From a virus (lineage: Duplodnaviria; Heunggongvirae; Uroviricota; Caudoviricetes), in the IMG/VR virus record IMGVR_UViG_2778261350_000001, positions 1-6,982 of that record: DNA of 6,982 nucleotides; one strand, given 5' to 3'. Positions 1 to 6,982 of this stretch are shown here, piece after piece (position 1 is the first letter of the stretch; every line of letters starts with the position of its first letter). Under the pieces are notes generated by a model that did not search any database, was not told where the DNA came from, and saw only the letters and a list, made by a program, of their open reading frames with translations. Both the position numbers and the translations under genes were made by a program.

Positions 1-106
1 GAGCGCGATCGATATCAGAACTGTAACCATTGCCGTTATGGCAATGGAATGAGGCGTTATTACCCACAGTTTCACGCGAGCACATCATGTAAAAACGGTT
101 GATCAC
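1..106 (-). CDS. Partial hypothetical protein; 5' end only, continues beyond window start
   Basis: GTG at 106-104 overlaps the upstream stop (GTGA) and sits 6 nt after GGAGG (113-117 on plus); an in-frame ATG-ATG pair at 88-83 is an alternative start. Frame stays open to position 1 (..[29 protein letters not shown]..). Not in the ORF track because it is truncated. Confidence 0.25.
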
Positions 107-270
107 CGGTTGCCTCCTTTGCGCCACATCGCATTCAGATATTTGTTGTCGTTAACAGAACCGAAACTATTTCTCTTAAGCAATTCCTCTCTCGATGGCA
201 TTGGCTTTACGCGTTGGCGAATAATCATTTCTGCCGGAAGAATGCCAGGATTGTATGCAAGACCTCTCAT
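103..270 (-). CDS. Hypothetical small protein (55 aa), translationally coupled to upstream gene
   Basis: ATG at 270-268 overlaps the TGA of the 267-548 gene (ATGA); GGAG lies 7-8 nt upstream. Hand translation: [55 protein letters not shown]. Below the ORF-track size cutoff; the plus-strand ORF 110-298 looks like its antisense shadow. Confidence 0.3.
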
Positions 271-548
271 GATTTACTCTCCACGAACTGGTCAATAGCC
301 ATGCTAAGTGACACACCTAAAGTCTCGATATGCTGCTGAATATCCTGTAGCGTCTGCTCCTGAGATAACAGTATTTCACGGTTGCATAACTCTTTAACCA
401 GATGCTCAAACTTGCTGTAATAACCGATACGACTTAGTGTTTCTTCCCCTGCATTCTCGCCTTCTTTGATAATTCCTCTTTCGCTAAGAATCAGGTCGTG
501 TTTGGTTCCGGTAATAACGTATTTTCCGAGGTCGATGTTTAGCTTCAT
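267..548 (-). CDS. Hypothetical phage early protein (93 aa)
   Basis: ORF track; GGAG about 9 nt upstream of the ATG at 548; same orientation and tight spacing with neighbouring PL-operon genes. No family recognised. Confidence 0.5.
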
Positions 549-564
549 TGTTAATTACTCCATG

Positions 565-879
565 TTAATTTATTCGTATGCCTGCTCTTTCTTCATCGAG
601 TTTTTTTAGCTTGTATCGCATAGCTCTTACTGAATAAATTGAGCGGCAGGTTGCAATTGCTATTTCTTCTGCGGAGAACTTACCGAAAAGTGATACTTCG
701 GCTCTTGTCCATCGCCTTCCACGAAGTCGGCTAACAATGTCAGCGCCAATCCTTGTTGCTTTCGCCATTACTGCTTTTTCAGTCCTTTCCAGTTTTTCAG
801 CGATAACTTCAACTGGCATTGTTGCCGCTACTTCGCGCAAGAAATCGACTTCCCATTTCTCCCATGGAGTCTTTTTCAT
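565..879 (-). CDS. Hypothetical protein with two tandem ~40-aa helix-turn-helix-like repeats (putative DNA-binding)
   Basis: ORF track. Internal repeat seen in translation: PWEKWEVDFLREVAATMPVEVIAEKLERTEKAVMAKATRIG and RWTRAEVSLFGKFSAEEIAIATCRSIYSVRAMRYKL share a W-x3-E-V-x-(F/L)..E-x-IA..R-x4-V/A pattern, reminiscent of GcrA/SANT-like HTH units. Weak SD. Confidence 0.55.
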   Translation of the reverse strand: MKKTPWEKWEVDFLREVAATMPVEVIAEKLERTEKAVMAKATRIGADIVSRLRGRRWTRAEVSLFGKFSAEEIAIATCRSIYSVRAMRYKLKKLDEERAGIRIN

Positions 880-890
880 AGGCGATACCG

Positions 891-1373
891 TTATTTGATA
901 AGAAGTGAAGGTTTCCCAACTTTGAGTTGAGCGCCGGGGATATTTATTCCTGCTTTTAGTTGGTGTTTGATTGCCAGTTTGTCGGCTTTTATTGTTGTTT
1001 CAAACTCAACGTATTCTGGAGGAAGGGCGCTTGAGTCGATTATTTCTACAATTTCTGACGGTTTGCGGATTGTTACCTGGTGAATACCTGCTCGAATATT
1101 TTTCTTGCCAACCATTTCAAGCGATGACGCTATATATGATTTGATGCTGTCAATCTTATTTTGAATTACTGCGGCTCGCTCATTCAGTGACTTTGCCTCT
1201 TCCTTGAGGCGTTCGGCATAACCAGATTCATTTTTAATGACGGAAAGAAGTTGTTCTATTTTATCGGTAAATTCTCCTTCCATGCCTTCTATTGTGTCAG
1301 CAATCATCTCTGGTTCTAAATCTGAATCCATCAGCTTTGCGTATTCATTGGCTATTTCATACAGTTTGCTCAC
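891..1373 (-). CDS. Gam-like / siphovirus Gp157-family protein (host-nuclease inhibitor-like)
   Basis: ORF track 891-1379 (frame opens with TTG). I place the start at GTG 1373-1371, 6 nt downstream of GGAGG. N-terminal coiled-coil-like region followed by a beta-rich C-terminal part; size and architecture resemble Mu Gam / Sipho_Gp157 proteins that sit next to RecT/Erf recombinases. Overlaps the recT 3' end. Confidence 0.55.
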   Translation of the reverse strand: MSKLYEIANEYAKLMDSDLEPEMIADTIEGMEGEFTDKIEQLLSVIKNESGYAERLKEEAKSLNERAAVIQNKIDSIKSYIASSLEMVGKKNIRAGIHQVTIRKPSEIVEIIDSSALPPEYVEFETTIKADKLAIKHQLKAGINIPGAQLKVGKPSLLIK

Positions 1374-2268
1374 TGGCAACCTCCAGTTTCGCTTTGCATT
1401 CTATGTAAATGGCTTGTACGTTCTGCTGCAATTTCATTCCAGATGTCAGGCGATATGCTTCTGCAAAATATCGCTTCAAATCATCCATGTTTTCTGCCTG
1501 AGCCATTTCATCGCAAAGAAGTTGTGCTTTATCCATTATTTCCTGCTGGCGTTTCCGTTCATCTTCGCGGATATCTTCCTCTGATTTGTGCGGCATAACT
1601 GGTTCAGTCCACACACCTTCTTCTTCGTTTAGTACGTGAATAGCACTATCAAGACGTGATGCCTTAGGCCAATACTTGCTTGCACGCTTTACGACCGTCT
1701 TTCGCGCCATCTCATTCCAGTGATTTACCCATGGTCCTTTATCGCTGAATGCTGCCTTGCTTGTTTTCCTTACAGCCTCAATTTCAGCCAGACTCATCTC
1801 TTCCGTTAGATAATCACCTGCTGGCGTCTTAACTGTGCAGTAAACGCCAACGATATCACCACGATCACCGAAGGCGTTGTATTTATGGGTTGGTGCTTTA
1901 TCAAGCCCGTTTGACTCATAGGTATCGTTAGCATGAACAAGTTTTGCCTGACCCCATGAGATAACACCAGACTCCATTGCAATATGGAGCAATCCCATAT
2001 AACTGATATCAAGGCAAACCATGCCGTCGCGCGGAACTAGATAAGCAAGTTTGCTGGCCGGGTTTAAGGTGATGCCTATCGCCGCAACATTGATGATGGC
2101 GTTCTGTGCGCTGGTTGGATTTGCCAGTGCTGTTTTAGCCAGGTAATCGTTTTTCTGGAAATACTGAATTGCAAACTGGCTTTCCTTAGCCCATGTCACC
2201 GTCTGTTCAGTCAATGCTCCGCAGAATAACTGCTCTTGCTGTTTAACGAATTCAACGATATTGCTCAT
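1357..2268 (-). CDS. recT: RecT-family single-strand annealing recombinase
   Basis: ORF track, 303 aa. Contains the GPWVNHWNEMARKTVVKRASKYWP segment matching the conserved RecT core (Rac RecT: GPWVTHWEEMAKKTAIRR..KYLP, from memory). Not Red-beta-like. ATG at 2268 overlaps the stop of the upstream gene (ATGA); GGAG 7 nt upstream. Confidence 0.85.
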   Translation of the reverse strand: MSNIVEFVKQQEQLFCGALTEQTVTWAKESQFAIQYFQKNDYLAKTALANPTSAQNAIINVAAIGITLNPASKLAYLVPRDGMVCLDISYMGLLHIAMESGVISWGQAKLVHANDTYESNGLDKAPTHKYNAFGDRGDIVGVYCTVKTPAGDYLTEEMSLAEIEAVRKTSKAAFSDKGPWVNHWNEMARKTVVKRASKYWPKASRLDSAIHVLNEEEGVWTEPVMPHKSEEDIREDERKRQQEIMDKAQLLCDEMAQAENMDDLKRYFAEAYRLTSGMKLQQNVQAIYIECKAKLEVASEQTV

Positions 2269-2576
2269 GCAGCTTCTCCATAAATATGTCTGCGTTTGAA
2301 TATTGCGAAGGCATATTCAGCCTTAACTCTTTCGGTTATTGCATCCCAGAACCATTCAGCGGCTTTTTCCTGATAGTTACAGTCATCATCTTCCAGCCAG
2401 TCGATAGCGTCCTTAGTGTGTTCATCTGGTTTATATGAGCGAAGCATTTCGCTTATTGGGTCGCAACGTTTGCAGAGGCGATCAACTTCACTGTTGATTC
2501 GCTCGTAATCTTCATCAGTAAAACTTGCGATTATTTGCGATATTTCACGCTTATCATTCAGAGTCAGAATCATCAT
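2265..2576 (-). CDS. Hypothetical acidic protein (about 102 aa)
   Basis: ORF track. Tandem ATG-ATG at 2576-2571 preceded by AGGAG (rc of 2582-2586); the second ATG has better spacing. Its stop overlaps the recT start. No family recognised. Confidence 0.55.
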   Translation of the reverse strand: MMILTLNDKREISQIIASFTDEDYERINSEVDRLCKRCDPISEMLRSYKPDEHTKDAIDWLEDDDCNYQEKAAEWFWDAITERVKAEYAFAIFKRRHIYGEAA

Positions 2577-2661
2577 CTTTCTCCTGTTCTTTGTGCTGAT
2601 TGAGCATTTTGTTCATCTGACGAATGAATTCTTCGTCTGACCATGTATCCGCAATGCTCAT
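2551..2661 (-). CDS. Hypothetical small ORF (36 aa, acidic C-terminus)
   Basis: ATG at 2661-2659 overlaps the TGA of the 2658-2822 ORF (ATGA). Hand translation: MSIADTWSDEEFIRQMNKMLNQHKEQEKDDDSDSE. Its 3' end overlaps the start of the 2265-2576 gene in another frame; weak SD. Could be a chance ORF. Confidence 0.2.
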
Positions 2662-2822
2662 TGCTTAACGACCTTAATCAGTTGAGTTACCTCAATGATG
2701 TCCTCGCATAAATCAGAGTACTGAAATGGGCCGCAGTTGTGAGAGTTAGTGCGTCTGGCGAAAGCCATTCTTCTAAGCTCTTTCAGGGCTTCTTCCAGTT
2801 CCTCGTAAGTTGGTTTTTTCAT
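2658..2822 (-). CDS. Hypothetical small protein (54 aa), coupled to cIII
   Basis: ATG at 2822-2820 overlaps the cIII TGA (ATGA). Hand translation: MKKPTYEELEEALKELRRMAFARRTNSHNCGPFQYSDLCEDIIEVTQLIKVVKQ. It occupies the slot where lambda has small genes after cIII. Below ORF-track cutoff. Confidence 0.35.
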   Translation of the reverse strand: MKKPTYEELEEALKELRRMAFARRTNSHNCGPFQYSDLCEDIIEVTQLIKVVKQ

Positions 2823-2989
2823 GGCTGTACCTTTTGATTCAGAAACTCAACAAGACGATCCAGCAAGCTCTTAACGCGAGGTTGTTTAAAGTCTGCTCCG
2901 GTTAAAATATTTTTTCGTGAATGCTGCACCGATAAAATTGGGTTGAAAGGGCGAACCGATGCCGCCCCTGCAATAGCGAACTGTTGCAT
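2819..2989 (-). CDS. cIII: cIII-like protein (FtsH inhibitor family), 56 aa
   Basis: Track ORF 2819-3094 contains the internal start MQQFAIAGAASVRPF... at 2989-2987 with AAGGAG 6 nt upstream. The N-terminus MQxFAIAG and the SLLDRL..FLNQ segment resemble lambda CIII (MQYAIAGW...SLLERI...ILNQ, from memory). The upstream leader also resembles the lambda cIII leader. The longer track N-terminus (MEIFFALQCEGFF..) is probably not translated. Confidence 0.6.
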   Translation of the reverse strand: MQQFAIAGAASVRPFNPILSVQHSRKNILTGADFKQPRVKSLLDRLVEFLNQKVQP

Positions 2990-3052
2990 AGGATGCTCCT
3001 TCTGTTTGATTGCATAACGAAAACGCCTCGAGTGAAGCGTTATTGGTATGCA

Positions 3053-3079
3053 TATAAAAAAGCCCTCACACTGGAGGGC
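3053..3079 (-). terminator. Rho-independent terminator candidate between the N-proximal insert and cIII
   Basis: Minus-strand transcript reads GCCCTC-CAGTGT-GAGGGC followed by TTTTTT (plus strand: A-run 3056-3061, stem arms 3062-3067 and 3074-3079). The U-tract is only on the minus strand, so it is orientation-specific for the leftward operon; presumably read through under N antitermination. Confidence 0.6.
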
Positions 3080-3172
3080 AAAGAAGATTTCCAATAATCA
3101 GAACAAGTCGGCTCCTGTTTAGTTACGAGCGACATTGCTCACATAGCAGACTCGTAAATCTGCTATAGGTGC

Positions 3173-3331
3173 TTATTCGCATCGCATGACAACATCAAAT
3201 TTTTCGAGATTACTTTGTCGCAACAATCCTTCTTCTACGCGATCAGCTTTTCTATAATTATCAAATTCGAAATGTTTAATTACTTCTTTCGTTTCTCGCT
3301 CTATAACTTCAACGATGTATTTCTTATTCAT
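3173..3331 (-). CDS. Hypothetical small protein (52 aa)
   Basis: ATG at 3331-3329 overlaps the TAA of the 3331-3600 gene (TAATG). Hand translation: MNKKYIVEVIERETKEVIKHFEFDNYRKADRVEEGLLRQSNLEKFDVVMRCE; stop at 3175-3173. Below ORF-track cutoff; the plus-strand ORF 3215-3442 is its antisense shadow. Confidence 0.35.
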   Translation of the reverse strand: MNKKYIVEVIERETKEVIKHFEFDNYRKADRVEEGLLRQSNLEKFDVVMRCE

Positions 3332-3600
3332 TATTCATCACCTATGGCTTTTTTGATAGCTTCGCGAGCCTTATTAACAGCTCCATACCATTCTGGATAT
3401 GTTGTCGTTGTTCTATTTTCGGCTTGCTTAAGTAATAACTGAAGTGCTTCAAGTAAATCCGGTGCAGCCATAGCTAATCTTCCATTTGCTAAGGCCTCTT
3501 CTGTTTCTTTACCGGATAGGGCCATTCCCGGGTGTGAAAATAAAATTAAGCCTGCAAAATTGGCTTCTCGCCAATTTTTCCTAGTACCTTTAAATTCCAT
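3331..3600 (-). CDS. Hypothetical protein (89 aa)
   Basis: ORF track; GAGG about 7 nt upstream of the ATG at 3600. No family recognised. Confidence 0.55.
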   Translation of the reverse strand: MEFKGTRKNWREANFAGLILFSHPGMALSGKETEEALANGRLAMAAPDLLEALQLLLKQAENRTTTTYPEWYGAVNKAREAIKKAIGDE

Positions 3601-3620
3601 GTTAGCCTCTGTTGTTTATG

Positions 3621-3648
3621 CCAAAAATAAAGGCCGACTATGCGGCCT
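3621..3648 (-). terminator. Terminator-like or attenuator hairpin at the 3' end of the 207-aa gene
   Basis: Minus-strand RNA: AGGCCG-CATAGT-CGGCCT followed by TTATTTTTGG (stem arms at plus 3631-3636 and 3643-3648; T-run is the rc of 3621-3630). Overlaps the TAG stop of the 3638-4261 gene. Confidence 0.35.
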
Positions 3649-4261
3649 CGGAAGGAAGTCCAATCATCTTATTCAAATCTTCTACCCGTAAAGCAGGAAG
3701 TGCTGCACTTGCTTTATCTGCTTCTTTTGGTAGCAACTCTTTGCTTTCAGGCCAAACTTCAATAAGTCGCTTAACTGTTGTGACTGAGTTCAAAGCAGCC
3801 CATACATTTGATTCGATATCCTTTTTCTTGGCTTCAAGTTTTTGTTGCAATGCGCAGATTTCATCAAACCTTTTTGTTATTTCGTGTTCTGCGCTAAACA
3901 TGCATTTATCTTTGGTCGGAGTAGGGAGCAATATATCTTCTCCGTTGCCGTCTTTCCCATATGAATGCCATCCAACCCTTCTGCCAGATACAGTCAGATA
4001 AATCGAAGTAGAACGAACATCGTATGAGTAAAATGGACATCCCAGTTTTTCAAGTTCTTCACTTATAGCTACTAACTTGGATGATAACTGATCCACTACC
4101 TCAGTTTTCTTTTTACCGCCAAACGCAATAACTCTGGCGTCAAGTGCAAGCTGGTTCATTAACTTTGTTACTTCTTCAAGTTCAGTGAAAACCCCAGACT
4201 TAATTAAAGCGTTACGAGCGATTTCCTCTTTCATTCTCGTAGTTAAACGGATTGATGACAT
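3638..4261 (-). CDS. Hypothetical protein (207 aa) immediately downstream of N; function unknown
   Basis: Track ORF 3638-4321 begins inside N. The likely start is ATG 4261-4259 (MSSIRLTTRMKEEIARN...), with GAGGA directly after the N stop codon and 6 nt before the ATG. Hydrophilic, no transmembrane-looking segments, no family recognised. Confidence 0.6.
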   Translation of the reverse strand: MSSIRLTTRMKEEIARNALIKSGVFTELEEVTKLMNQLALDARVIAFGGKKKTEVVDQLSSKLVAISEELEKLGCPFYSYDVRSTSIYLTVSGRRVGWHSYGKDGNGEDILLPTPTKDKCMFSAEHEITKRFDEICALQQKLEAKKKDIESNVWAALNSVTTVKRLIEVWPESKELLPKEADKASAALPALRVEDLNKMIGLPSEAA

Positions 4262-4272
4262 ATTAATTCCTC

Positions 4273-4599
4273 TCAAATAAGTGGTTTGCTGCCTAATTTC
4301 ATTTTCTGGCGACCAACACAAGTCACACCCATTTCACTGCGTGGCTTGCTGTACCATGTGCGCTGATTCTTGCGTTCAATACGTTGCAGGTTGCTTTCAA
4401 TCTGTTCGTGGTATTCAGCCAGCACTGTAAGGTCTATAGGATTCAGTGCGCTTTCTACTCGTGATTTCGGTTTGCGATTCAGCGAGAGAATAGGGCGGTT
4501 AACTGGCTTTGCGCTTACCCCAACCAACAGGGGATTTGCTGCTTTCCATTGAGCCTGTTTCTCTGCGCGACGTTCGCGGCGGCGTGTTTGTGCATCCAT
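4273..4599 (-). CDS. N: Antitermination protein N (lambda-like)
   Basis: ORF track, 108 aa. MDAQTRRRERRAEKQAQWKAANPLLVGVSAKPVNRPILSLNRKPKSRVESALNPIDLTVLAEYH... matches lambda N nearly residue for residue over about 85 aa, including the arginine-rich boxB-binding motif; the C-terminal ~25 aa diverge. GGAG upstream (..caggagaatccagATG). Confidence 0.95.
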   Translation of the reverse strand: MDAQTRRRERRAEKQAQWKAANPLLVGVSAKPVNRPILSLNRKPKSRVESALNPIDLTVLAEYHEQIESNLQRIERKNQRTWYSKPRSEMGVTCVGRQKMKLGSKPLI

Positions 4600-4797
4600 C
4601 TGGATTCTCCTGTCAGTTAGCTTTGGTGATTGGATGGCCGGCGCTGAACCCCGGCTTACTGGTTAGAGCGCCCGCACTACCAGTGACGCTGTCTTGAGGC
4701 GCAGATTGGTTACTGCTTGCCATGAGCGCTGTTTATACATTGGTCGAGCATCAGCCTGCTCATTCATCCAATCCCAAAGCCTTCTGCTTTGAATGCT

Positions 4798-4828
4798 GCC
4801 CTTCTTCAGGGCTTAATTTTTAAGAGCC
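4798..4828 (-). promoter_or_regulatory. nutL: nutL (boxB hairpin 4798-4812, boxA-like 4820-4828)
   Basis: On the minus strand: GGCTCTTAA-AAATTAA-GCCCTGAAGAAGGGC. boxB equals lambda nutL boxB (GCCCTGAAGAAGGGC); boxA differs from the lambda CGCTCTTAA by one base as far as I recall. Correctly placed between PL and N. Confidence 0.85.
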
Positions 4829-4860
4829 TCACCTTCATGGTGGTCAGTGCGTCCTGCTGA

Positions 4861-4896
4861 TGGCTTAAAATTACAAGAAAGATTGTATGTTGTAAA
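4861..4896 (-). promoter_or_regulatory. PL promoter (-35 TTTACA at 4891-4896, -10 TAATTT at 4868-4873, start near 4861)
   Basis: Minus-strand sequence downstream reads ATCAGCAGGACGCACTGACCACC, which matches the 5' end of the lambda pL transcript as I recall it. Hexamers have a 17-nt spacer; OL1 lies in the spacer and OL2 overlaps the -35. Confidence 0.7.
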
Positions 4897-4940
4897 CAAG
4901 AAATATTGTAAAAAGGGGCGTGAAAAACAAACTCCATTGT
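4873..4940. promoter_or_regulatory. OL operator cluster: three 14-bp 434-type repressor sites
   Basis: acaagaaagattgt (4873-4886), acaagaaatattgt (4896-4909), acaaactccattgt (4927-4940); all ACAA-N6-TTGT with dyad symmetry. Same consensus as the OR sites next to cI/cro. Confidence 0.8.
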
Positions 4941-4989
4941 TTTTAAATGAAAAATAGTTTGTTTTTGGTTATCGAGATTGAGGTGGGGA

Positions 4990-6342
<1,353 letters not shown>

Positions 6343-6350
6343 GACATTCC

Positions 6351-6382
6351 CGCTCTTACACATCCCAGCCCTGAAAAAGGGC
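6351..6382 (+). promoter_or_regulatory. nutR: nutR (boxA CGCTCTTAC 6351-6359, boxB GCCCTGAAAAAGGGC 6368-6382)
   Basis: Both elements match lambda nutR as I recall it, located just after the cro stop. A downstream 8-bp-stem palindrome at 6406-6427 lies in the region equivalent to lambda tR1. Confidence 0.85.
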
Positions 6383-6451
6383 ATCAAATTAAACCACACC
6401 TATGGTGTATGCATTTATTTGCATACATTCAATCAATTGTTATCTAAGGAA

Positions 6452-6484
6452 ATACTTACATATGCAACTTACAAGTACTCGCAA
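6452..6484 (-). promoter_or_regulatory. PRE-like CII-activated promoter candidate (antisense to the cro-cII junction)
   Basis: Minus strand reads TTGC(6484-6481)-gagtac-TTGT(6474-6471), then 13 nt, then AAGTAT (rc of 6452-6457). Same geometry as lambda PRE (TTGC-N6-TTGC, 13 nt, AAGTAT) inside the first cII codons, but the second repeat is TTGT. Assigned by positional analogy only. Confidence 0.4.
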
Positions 6485-6740
6485 GAAAGCGAATGCAATT
6501 ACAAGCAACATCCTAAATCGAATTGCTGTACGTGGTCAGCGAAAGGTAGCCGACGCGTTAGGGATTAATGAATCGCAAATTTCACGATGGAAAGACAGCT
6601 TCATCCCAAAAATGGGAATGCTTCTGGCTGTTCTTGAATGGGGTGTTGAAGACGAGGAGTTGGCGGAACTGGCTAAGAAAGTAGCCAGAATGCTGACAAA
6701 AGAAAAAGCCCCGAAGAACGGCGAATTCTTCGAGGCCTGA
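6462..6740 (+). CDS. cII: CII-family transcriptional activator (92 aa)
   Basis: Internal start of track ORF 6402-6740, with AAGGA upstream in a leader identical to the lambda cII leader. ..ESQISRWKDSFIPKMGMLLAVLEWGVEDEELAELAKKVARMLT aligns with lambda CII (..KSQISRWKRDWIPKFSMLLAVLEWGVVDDDMARLARQVAAILT). N- and C-termini diverge from lambda. Confidence 0.9.
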   Translation: MQLTSTRKKANAITSNILNRIAVRGQRKVADALGINESQISRWKDSFIPKMGMLLAVLEWGVEDEELAELAKKVARMLTKEKAPKNGEFFEA

Positions 6741-6774
6741 TGTAGAAAGACTGGATCAATCCACAGGAGTAATT

Positions 6775-6982
<208 letters not shown>

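Follow-up and report, generated by a model that had tools for sequence, protein, structure and literature searches.

Separable accessory modules between N and cIII of a lambdoid prophage: an Nmad5-family gene and a Y8K6-family two-gene cassette

Between the antitermination gene N and the cIII-like gene of a lambdoid prophage lie three small genes. Do they form one system, acquired and acting together, or are they separate occupants of a variable segment? We addressed this question for a stretch of 6,982 nucleotides from a tailed phage (IMG/VR record IMGVR_UViG_2778261350_000001, positions 1 to 6,982; hereafter the window), which comprises the immunity and early-left region of a lambdoid prophage and is identical in sequence to NCBI contig NOOY01000064.1 of assembly GCA_002519865.1. 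An earlier note, made from the sequence alone, had described the three genes as a single insert of unrecognised genes, bracketed by terminator-like hairpins and expressed under the control of N, and had suggested an anti-defence or exclusion function. Its open reading frames (ORFs), the ribosome-binding site after the N stop codon and the TAATG overlap are all located as it described, and the N–cIII accessory segment of lambdoid phages is indeed a variable region. Sequence comparison nevertheless indicates that the part between N and cIII consists of separately shuffled accessory modules, and is an ordinary variable phage region and no new three-gene system. The features of the segment are as follows (aa, amino acids).

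4273..4599, minus strand: gene for a lambda-type antiterminator N of 108 aa (PF11438 N36, E 1.5e-26; phrog_271)
3638..4261, minus strand: Nmad5-family gene, 207 aa (PF18757; phrog_1965)
3620..3649, minus strand: terminator-like hairpin at the end of the first gene (stem 3649-3643 / 3636-3630, 7 pairs; U-rich tail TATTTTTGG)
3141..3607, minus strand: cassette-specific DNA of 467 bp, delimited by a four-way alignment and bearing the 89-aa and 52-aa genes
3331..3600, minus strand: 89-aa gene (PF27050, Phage_P22_Y8K6; phrog_1273)
3173..3331, minus strand: 52-aa gene (phrog_6949), its start overlapping the stop of the 89-aa gene as TAATG
2819..2989, minus strand: cIII-like gene, 56 aa (phrog_550 'CIII', E 5.9e-19), the downstream border of the variable segment

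The three genes lie on the leftward pL transcript, on the minus strand, between N and the cIII-like gene. The N stop codon, TGA, is directly followed by GAGGA (4272-4268) and, six bases on, by the ATG at 4261, leaving 11 nt between N and the Nmad5 gene. The gap between the 207-aa and 89-aa ORFs is 37 nt.

Two modules in one variable segment

The Nmad5 gene and the two-gene cassette are each found without the other. Phages HK542, HK244 and mEp235 carry the Nmad5 gene in the same slot after N (after Nun in mEp235), with the same hairpin at the stop codon, and their products (HK542 gp33, AFH20414; mEp235 gp37, AFM76255; HK244 ORF01), none of which has been functionally characterised, share 94–96% identity with the window protein over 207 residues (96% for mEp235 and HK542). 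They differ from the window in lacking the 89-aa and 52-aa genes. About 41 bp replace the 467 bp of the cassette (3141-3607), and the flanks align base for base, up to 3608 on one side and from 3140 onward on the other; the ends of the indel are clean. Conversely, mEp043 and mEp213 carry N, a small ORF, a Y8K6-family gene and an identical 52-aa gene, without Nmad5, and the pair lacks Nmad5 in 6 of 10 distinct Escherichia coli contexts. In mEp213 (locus L004, 1644-3401), two N genes, one HK244-like and one HK620-like, flank the small ORF, the Y8K6 gene and the 52-aa gene, and it looks as if two early-left segments had been joined in tandem. The trio does recur elsewhere, as the earlier note had proposed to check: the P22-like phage APC_JM3.2, E. 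coli S163-2, loci L028 and L034 and a few other genomes each carry all three genes.

A survey of 5,426 complete E. coli genomes gave the same picture. The Nmad5 allele is annotated by RefSeq in 211 genomes, some part of the two-gene cassette is present in 155 and the whole cassette in 7, whereas the trio, at 80% query coverage or more, is present in 4. The 105-bp junction that follows Nmad5 in HK542 (L001, 3112-3216; hairpin, 41 bp and a conserved stretch), which in the window corresponds to about 3608-3650 plus 3100-3140, is carried by 1,297 genomes, six times the number of Nmad5 carriers. The junction is thus far commoner than Nmad5, and is a conserved, general lambdoid mosaic junction into which accessory genes slot. 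Its abundance also made it unusable for counting Nmad5-alone loci in E. coli: the junction itself is widespread, and joined pieces took in cassette-bearing loci.

The earlier note had compared the insert to the ral and sieB region of phage lambda. The segment is the same, in that lambda and P22 carry Ral and SieB in this N–cIII variable segment, but the trio is no replacement for them. The proteins have no sequence relationship to Ral or SieB, and SieB lies on the opposite strand. Moreover, in L028 the genes for N, SieB, Ral, Nmad5, Y8K6 and the 52-aa protein all stand in one operon region; the three genes are therefore additions and not replacements.

All three proteins fall in catalogued families, although the earlier note recognised none of them, and their genes are near-identical to annotated genes of HK542, mEp235, mEp043 and APC_JM3.2. 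We therefore see no new kind of system here: Nmad5 is already named in the reference annotation, and the region behaves as any lambdoid accessory slot. What the mosaic does offer is a set of cultivable E. coli phages that carry Nmad5 only (HK542, mEp235), the pair only (mEp043, mEp213) or all three genes (APC_JM3.2).

Hairpins, antitermination and the timing of expression

Both hairpins named by the earlier note, one over the stop codon of the 207-aa gene and a textbook terminator after the cassette, are present. They do not bracket the trio, as that note had it: the first lies between genes 1 and 2 and splits the trio. Further elements of the leftward operon that bear on its expression are the following.

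4798..4828, minus strand: nutL, with a boxA-like GGCTCTTA at 4828-4821 and boxB GCCCTGAAGAAGGGC at 4812-4798
3142..3167, minus strand: hairpin with an 11-bp stem just 3' of the 52-aa stop codon, without a U tract (-14.9 kcal/mol, z -4.69)
3054..3079, minus strand: intrinsic-terminator-like hairpin GCCCTC-CAGTGT-GAGGGC (stem-loop 3079-3062, then TTTTTTAT)
3022..3041, minus strand: hairpin immediately 5' of cIII (-11.5 kcal/mol, z -3.56)

The hairpin at 3649-3630, which holds the TAG stop codon of Nmad5 in its loop, has a predicted stability of -11.0 kcal/mol (z -1.07 relative to shuffled sequences). It is kept in HK542, mEp235 and APC_JM3.2, with one stem mismatch in HK542, and has no counterpart in the lambda N–cIII region. 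The hairpin at 3079-3062 (-11.1 kcal/mol, z -2.48) is kept in the same three phages, and the sequence of the 3041-3022 hairpin is also found directly upstream of lambda cIII. In a pattern scan for rho-independent terminators (a G+C-rich stem-loop followed by a U tract), the hairpins at 3649-3630 and 3079-3062 were both recovered, as was that at 3041-3022; the scan found 4 terminator-like sites where 2.5 were expected. We regard these hairpins as plausible terminators that are statistically unremarkable. None of 200 shuffles was as stable as the strong 3142-3167 hairpin within the cassette-specific DNA, which could serve in RNA processing or stability or mark a boundary of recombination.

The boxB of nutL is identical to that of the annotated lambda NutL and the boxA differs by one mismatch, from which the site is predicted to give N-dependent read-through to the leftward transcript. 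(The terminator scan labelled boxB as a terminator-like site on the plus strand, which is a false label.) The earlier note had assigned N-dependent expression to all three genes. For the 207-aa gene this does not fit its position: since it lies 11 nt from N with no terminator between, its product is probably immediate-early and needs no N. The first hairpin lies ahead of the 89-aa and 52-aa genes only, and these would need N read-through. The scan for promoter-like sites on the coding strand found none within the trio, but it also missed pL, and the absence of an own promoter is therefore weak evidence.

Candidate functions of the three proteins

Searches of Pfam with the three proteins gave no match to Ral (PF11058) or SieB (PF14163), PADLOC-DB 2.0 gave no defence family at E values up to 0.1, and NCBIfam and Rfam gave no matches. 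Sequence-profile searches of the PDB returned nothing below E 0.5; a line for AcrE1 at E 0.57 was treated as noise. No enzyme, defence protein, Ral or SieB matched the structure models, and literature searches on PF18757, XkdD and lambdoid accessory-gene screens turned up nothing on these genes. The remote-homology and structure searches thus bear out the view that none of the three has homology to a gene of established function. The proteins have isoelectric points (pI) of 5.8–6.8 and a negative grand average of hydropathy (GRAVY), and their models suggest small, soluble proteins that are helical or composed of β-strands and helices. We also considered that one of them might mimic DNA, and rejected the idea because none is strongly acidic.

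The assignment of the 207-aa protein to Nmad5 is clear. It scores 237.9 bits against PF18757 (cut-off 27; E 1.5e-70), with residues 4-203 covering profile positions 1-206 of 206, and matches phrog_1965 at E 1.6e-80. PF18757 stands for 'nucleotide modification associated domain 5', a name that reportedly comes from Iyer et al., and RefSeq calls the product 'Nmad5 family putative nucleotide modification protein'. The C-terminal signature of the family (A-A-L-N-S-V-T-T-x-K-R-L-x-E-x-W-P-E ... L-P-A-L-x-V-x-D-L-N) is present. Across 29 sequences, down to 31% identity, A155, S159, V160, T162, L166, W170, P171, E172, E175, P189, L196, N197 and P203 are invariant, and conservation is highest over residues 151-203 (mean top-residue frequency 0.78–0.84 per ten-residue block, but 0.62 at 181-190). 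The structure model is a helical bundle without an enzyme-like structural match, and a Foldseek search of viral structures with it returned only other Nmad5 proteins. From about residue 180, the tail has the lowest model confidence (predicted local distance difference test, pLDDT, 44–56). A tail that is both conserved and of low confidence is the pattern expected of a partner-binding tail and not of an active site.

The family extends well beyond lambdoid phages. Klebsiella and Serratia prophages have Nmad5 as the first ORF downstream of the repressor gene, a strong terminator and a promoter-like site; in a Providencia prophage, where it stands at the head of a block of replication genes, no other called gene separates it from the repressor. 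Its position is consistent: in prophages from at least four genera, Nmad5 is the promoter-proximal early gene. The Nmad5 proteins of lytic phages (Yuavirus SN1 and M6, the N4-like Pollock, and Dhillonvirus SM_S22 and SM_A8) share the C-terminal signature but only 25–35% identity with the window protein. In Yuavirus SN1 the gene lies inside a thymidine-hypermodification cluster, between genes for aGPT-pyrophosphorylase and a thymidylate synthase/hydroxymethylase, and also adjoins genes for a nucleotide kinase, a radical S-adenosylmethionine enzyme and a pyridoxal-phosphate enzyme; the window has no such cluster. In Pollock it lies between the thymidylate synthase and gp42/primase genes, in eiAU-183 it follows the helicase-primase gene downstream, and a Vibrio phage has it just ahead of a replication initiator. 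In Dhillonvirus the proteins are longer, contain a large insertion and are encoded antisense among head genes. In LM40P1, SM_S22 and SM_A8 (L010, L018 and L019), the gene is antisense to the head-morphogenesis and scaffold genes, between which it lies; the SM_S22 coding sequence overlaps the scaffold gene by about 200 nt, its 80-residue N-terminal extension looks non-homologous, and the true start is probably the shorter one of SM_A8.

The only experimental work on Nmad5 that we found in the literature concerns these Dhillonviruses. Substitutions K296E in SM_S22 and K216E in SM_A8 escape the Tmn defence, whereas deletion of nmad5 does not, and cloning of nmad5 was unsuccessful, apparently owing to toxicity (PMC11846954). 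In a comparison of the deposited genomes, the counterpart of the escape lysine (K296/K216; motif NTDK-K-LIKAWPE) in the window protein is R165 (TTVK-R-LIEVWPE), at a position of the Nmad5 signature that is basic and nearly invariant. The published substitution thus maps to the most conserved motif of the family and provides a specific mutation that can be tested.

The 89-aa protein belongs to the P22 Y8K6 family. A precomputed PF27050 match is recorded on the exact product and on 81 of 81 homologues, some members of which PGAP names 'XkdD/Y8K6 family phage-associated protein', and the protein matches phrog_1273 at E 2.8e-16. It bears the motif L-x-AAAPDLLEAL, in which L42, A45, A46, P47, L49 and L50 are invariant in 33 sequences. 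With P22 Y8K6 and ST104 ORF18 (annotated as similar to P22 orf78, and itself a PF27050 member) it shares this core, a GT-x-x-W start and a location in the ral-to-17/cIII segment of the early-left operon; it differs from them in its combination of N- and C-terminal blocks, and ST104 ORF18 is without a 52-aa partner. An alignment of loci L002, L004, L005, L006, L007, L011, L012 and L013 reveals a three-block mosaic, with at least four alternative N-terminal and at least four C-terminal blocks around the AAAPDLLEAL core, which may act as a recombination joint. The AlphaFold2 model (pLDDT 88.4) consists of a three-stranded β-meander and a helical hairpin, and a structural search with it gave generic matches only. 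ST104 orf19, which lies upstream of ORF18, was considered as an Nmad5 gene and set aside, since it has no relationship to Nmad5 and resembles a repeat protein.

The 52-aa protein matches phrog_6949 over positions 1-52 of 52 (E 3.2e-40). Among seven copies from different phages and genomes there are 50 synonymous and 6 non-synonymous codon differences, all six of the latter representing one K-to-R change; the ORF is therefore a real gene under strong purifying selection. The family is tiny, with 18 matches at E ≤0.001, of 49–88 residues, in a profile search of 1.84 billion representative proteins. RefSeq/PGAP leaves the intact ORF unannotated in E. coli S163-2 (L008, 4074-4232) and, below the Y8K6 gene, in USMARC-50748 (L009).

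Taken together, the segment is a mosaic of independently assorting accessory modules, which probably encode binders for host interaction or counter-defence during the lytic cycle. The modular mosaic is observed; the expression order, the binding and the roles are what we infer beyond it. The first module is Nmad5, fused to the end of N and upstream of the first terminator-like hairpin. The second is the 467-bp cassette, inserted where the intergenic DNA is conserved and rich in terminators. Nmad5 would be made together with N as an immediate-early product, and the pair only once N carries transcription past the hairpin. All three proteins would be small, soluble, cytoplasmic binders and not catalysts. 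The tail of the Nmad5 helical bundle (SVTT-KR-LIEVWPE ... LPAL-V-DLN--IGLP) probably docks onto a conserved partner, which may be a host or phage factor of DNA replication or DNA metabolism. The Y8K6 and 52-aa proteins probably cooperate, and the variable ends of Y8K6 would set target specificity. Our guess is that a role in lytic-cycle host interaction or counter-defence is likelier for these genes than DNA modification or prophage exclusion.

Several observations weigh against this explanation. The location of Nmad5 in nucleotide-modification and replication modules of lytic phages supports its name. The Dhillonvirus result could equally be read as Nmad5 being sensed by a defence and not blocking one, and a counter-defence role is a possibility suggested by position, timing and one genetic link in a distant phage. 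The division into immediate-early and delayed-early genes is tentative, given the z of -1.07 for the first hairpin and the stem mismatch in HK542. Some Y8K6 genes lack the 52-aa gene, being followed by no gene of this kind (ST104) or by unrelated ORFs of 62 or 64 aa. Finally, about 48 Stx2a-phage records match residues 34-207 of Nmad5 only, in two places. In the one record opened, Stx2a phage Stx2_EH1965 (L039; LC616032, 900-2700), an IS3-family element (orfA, 108 aa; orfB, 296 aa) interrupts the gene and a 152-aa C-terminal Nmad5 ORF remains; at least there, Nmad5 is therefore dispensable.

A more specific proposal, which we offer as speculation and consider on balance unlikely, is that the temperate Nmad5 has no part in nucleotide modification and is the immediate-early, promoter-proximal effector of the leftward operon: a helical adaptor whose conserved basic/WPE tail binds a conserved host factor, through an interface to which KAP-NTPase defences such as Tmn respond or with which Nmad5 blocks a defence. 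If this were true, Nmad5 would be wrongly named, and a phage protein family of wide distribution would have a part in the arms race between phage and host. A widespread, promoter-proximal family with a genetic link to defence is in any case the main interest that remains in this locus.

That the 89-aa and 52-aa proteins form a toxin–antitoxin-like or otherwise obligate two-subunit pair is about as doubtful. Their genes overlap at stop and start, and in 8 of 10 distinct contexts of the exact 52-aa protein its gene directly follows a PF27050 gene, the ends of the two overlapping; the 52-aa protein is also nearly invariant while its partner varies. Overlapping ends, however, are common in tightly packed phage operons, and neither protein matches a toxin or antitoxin family in Pfam, NCBIfam or PADLOC. 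Y8K6 also occurs alone or with the unrelated 62-aa and 64-aa ORFs, and in L027 the 52-aa gene follows a different gene, of 130 aa. With no such homology, and with Y8K6 found without the 52-aa gene, the pair does not qualify as a type II toxin–antitoxin system. The slot upstream of the PF27050 gene is itself variable, with Nmad5 in 2 of the 10 contexts and Ral or unrelated ORFs of 83, 106, 121 and 156 aa as other occupants. The 64-aa ORF that follows the Y8K6 gene of an Enterobacter phage was examined as a homologue of the 52-aa gene and found to be unrelated.

We consider it somewhat less likely still that Nmad5 modifies bases of the phage DNA and so shields it from restriction. This is how the Dhillonvirus authors treat it, as a modification enzyme (PMC11846954), and the neighbouring genes in Yuavirus SN1 and Pollock fit such a role. 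In the lambdoid, Klebsiella and Serratia loci the partner enzymes are missing: no gene for a thymidylate synthase, kinase, aGPT-Pplase, glycosyltransferase or methylase is present in the 7-kb window or at the Klebsiella and Serratia loci. The modification-enzyme neighbourhood on which the Nmad5 name is based is thus absent here, which bears on function and not on family membership. The helical bundle has no enzyme-like match, and its conserved positions lie in the low-confidence tail and not in a pocket. In Dhillonvirus, moreover, deletion of the gene leaves Tmn sensitivity in place, whereas a point mutation alters it (PMC11846954).

It is improbable that one or more of the genes act from the prophage in superinfection exclusion or abortive infection, as analogues of SieB or Rex; an exclusion or abortive function was one of the options in the earlier note. 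Lambda and P22 do keep sieB in the same segment, and lambdoid accessory slots often bear defence genes. Against this, the PADLOC search was empty, the proteins have no hydrophobic character, SieB itself stands alongside the trio in L028, and all three genes are on the pL strand with no own promoter found, a weak point as the scan missed pL. Least probable of all, and already largely refuted by the distribution, is one co-functional trio that was acquired as a unit and is N-dependent, whether it inhibits restriction or nucleases or acts in exclusion or abortive infection. The three genes are neighbours on the same strand, separated by short gaps, in an order that recurs in APC_JM3.2, S163-2, L028 and L034, but each module is common alone, trio genomes number 4 against 211 with Nmad5, and a hairpin parts gene 1, itself behind no terminator relative to N, from genes 2 and 3.

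Flanking genes of the window

For the repressor (5391-6023, minus strand), the N-terminal domain matches the solved protein of phage 434 at E 9e-38; Cro (6127-6342, plus strand) matches its solved 434 counterpart at E 1.4e-42. Operators lie at about 6060-6110 and 4860-4900. By sequence, the immunity region is of the phage 434 type, here joined with a lambda-type N and nutL.

No homologue of Kil (PF06301) or of Gam/Abc2 was seen in the window. On the 3' side of cIII, positions 2265-2822 (minus strand) hold small uncharacterised ORFs of 54 aa (phrog_32687), 35 aa and 103 aa (phrog_3486), which precede genes for a RecT-family recombinase (1357-2268) and a Gp157-family protein.

On the other side of N, an ORF at 4990-5466 (minus strand; phrog_2651) overlaps the repressor gene at the latter's 3' end, and its product has a hydrophobic N-terminus. 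Counted from the first ATG, this product has 158 aa; the start called in L037, an ATG overlapping the cI stop codon, would give 134 aa. Phage 434 Hex is described as translated from an ORF that partly overlaps the 434 repressor gene (PMC3564112), and the position of the 4990-5466 ORF fits that of the Hex protein so described.

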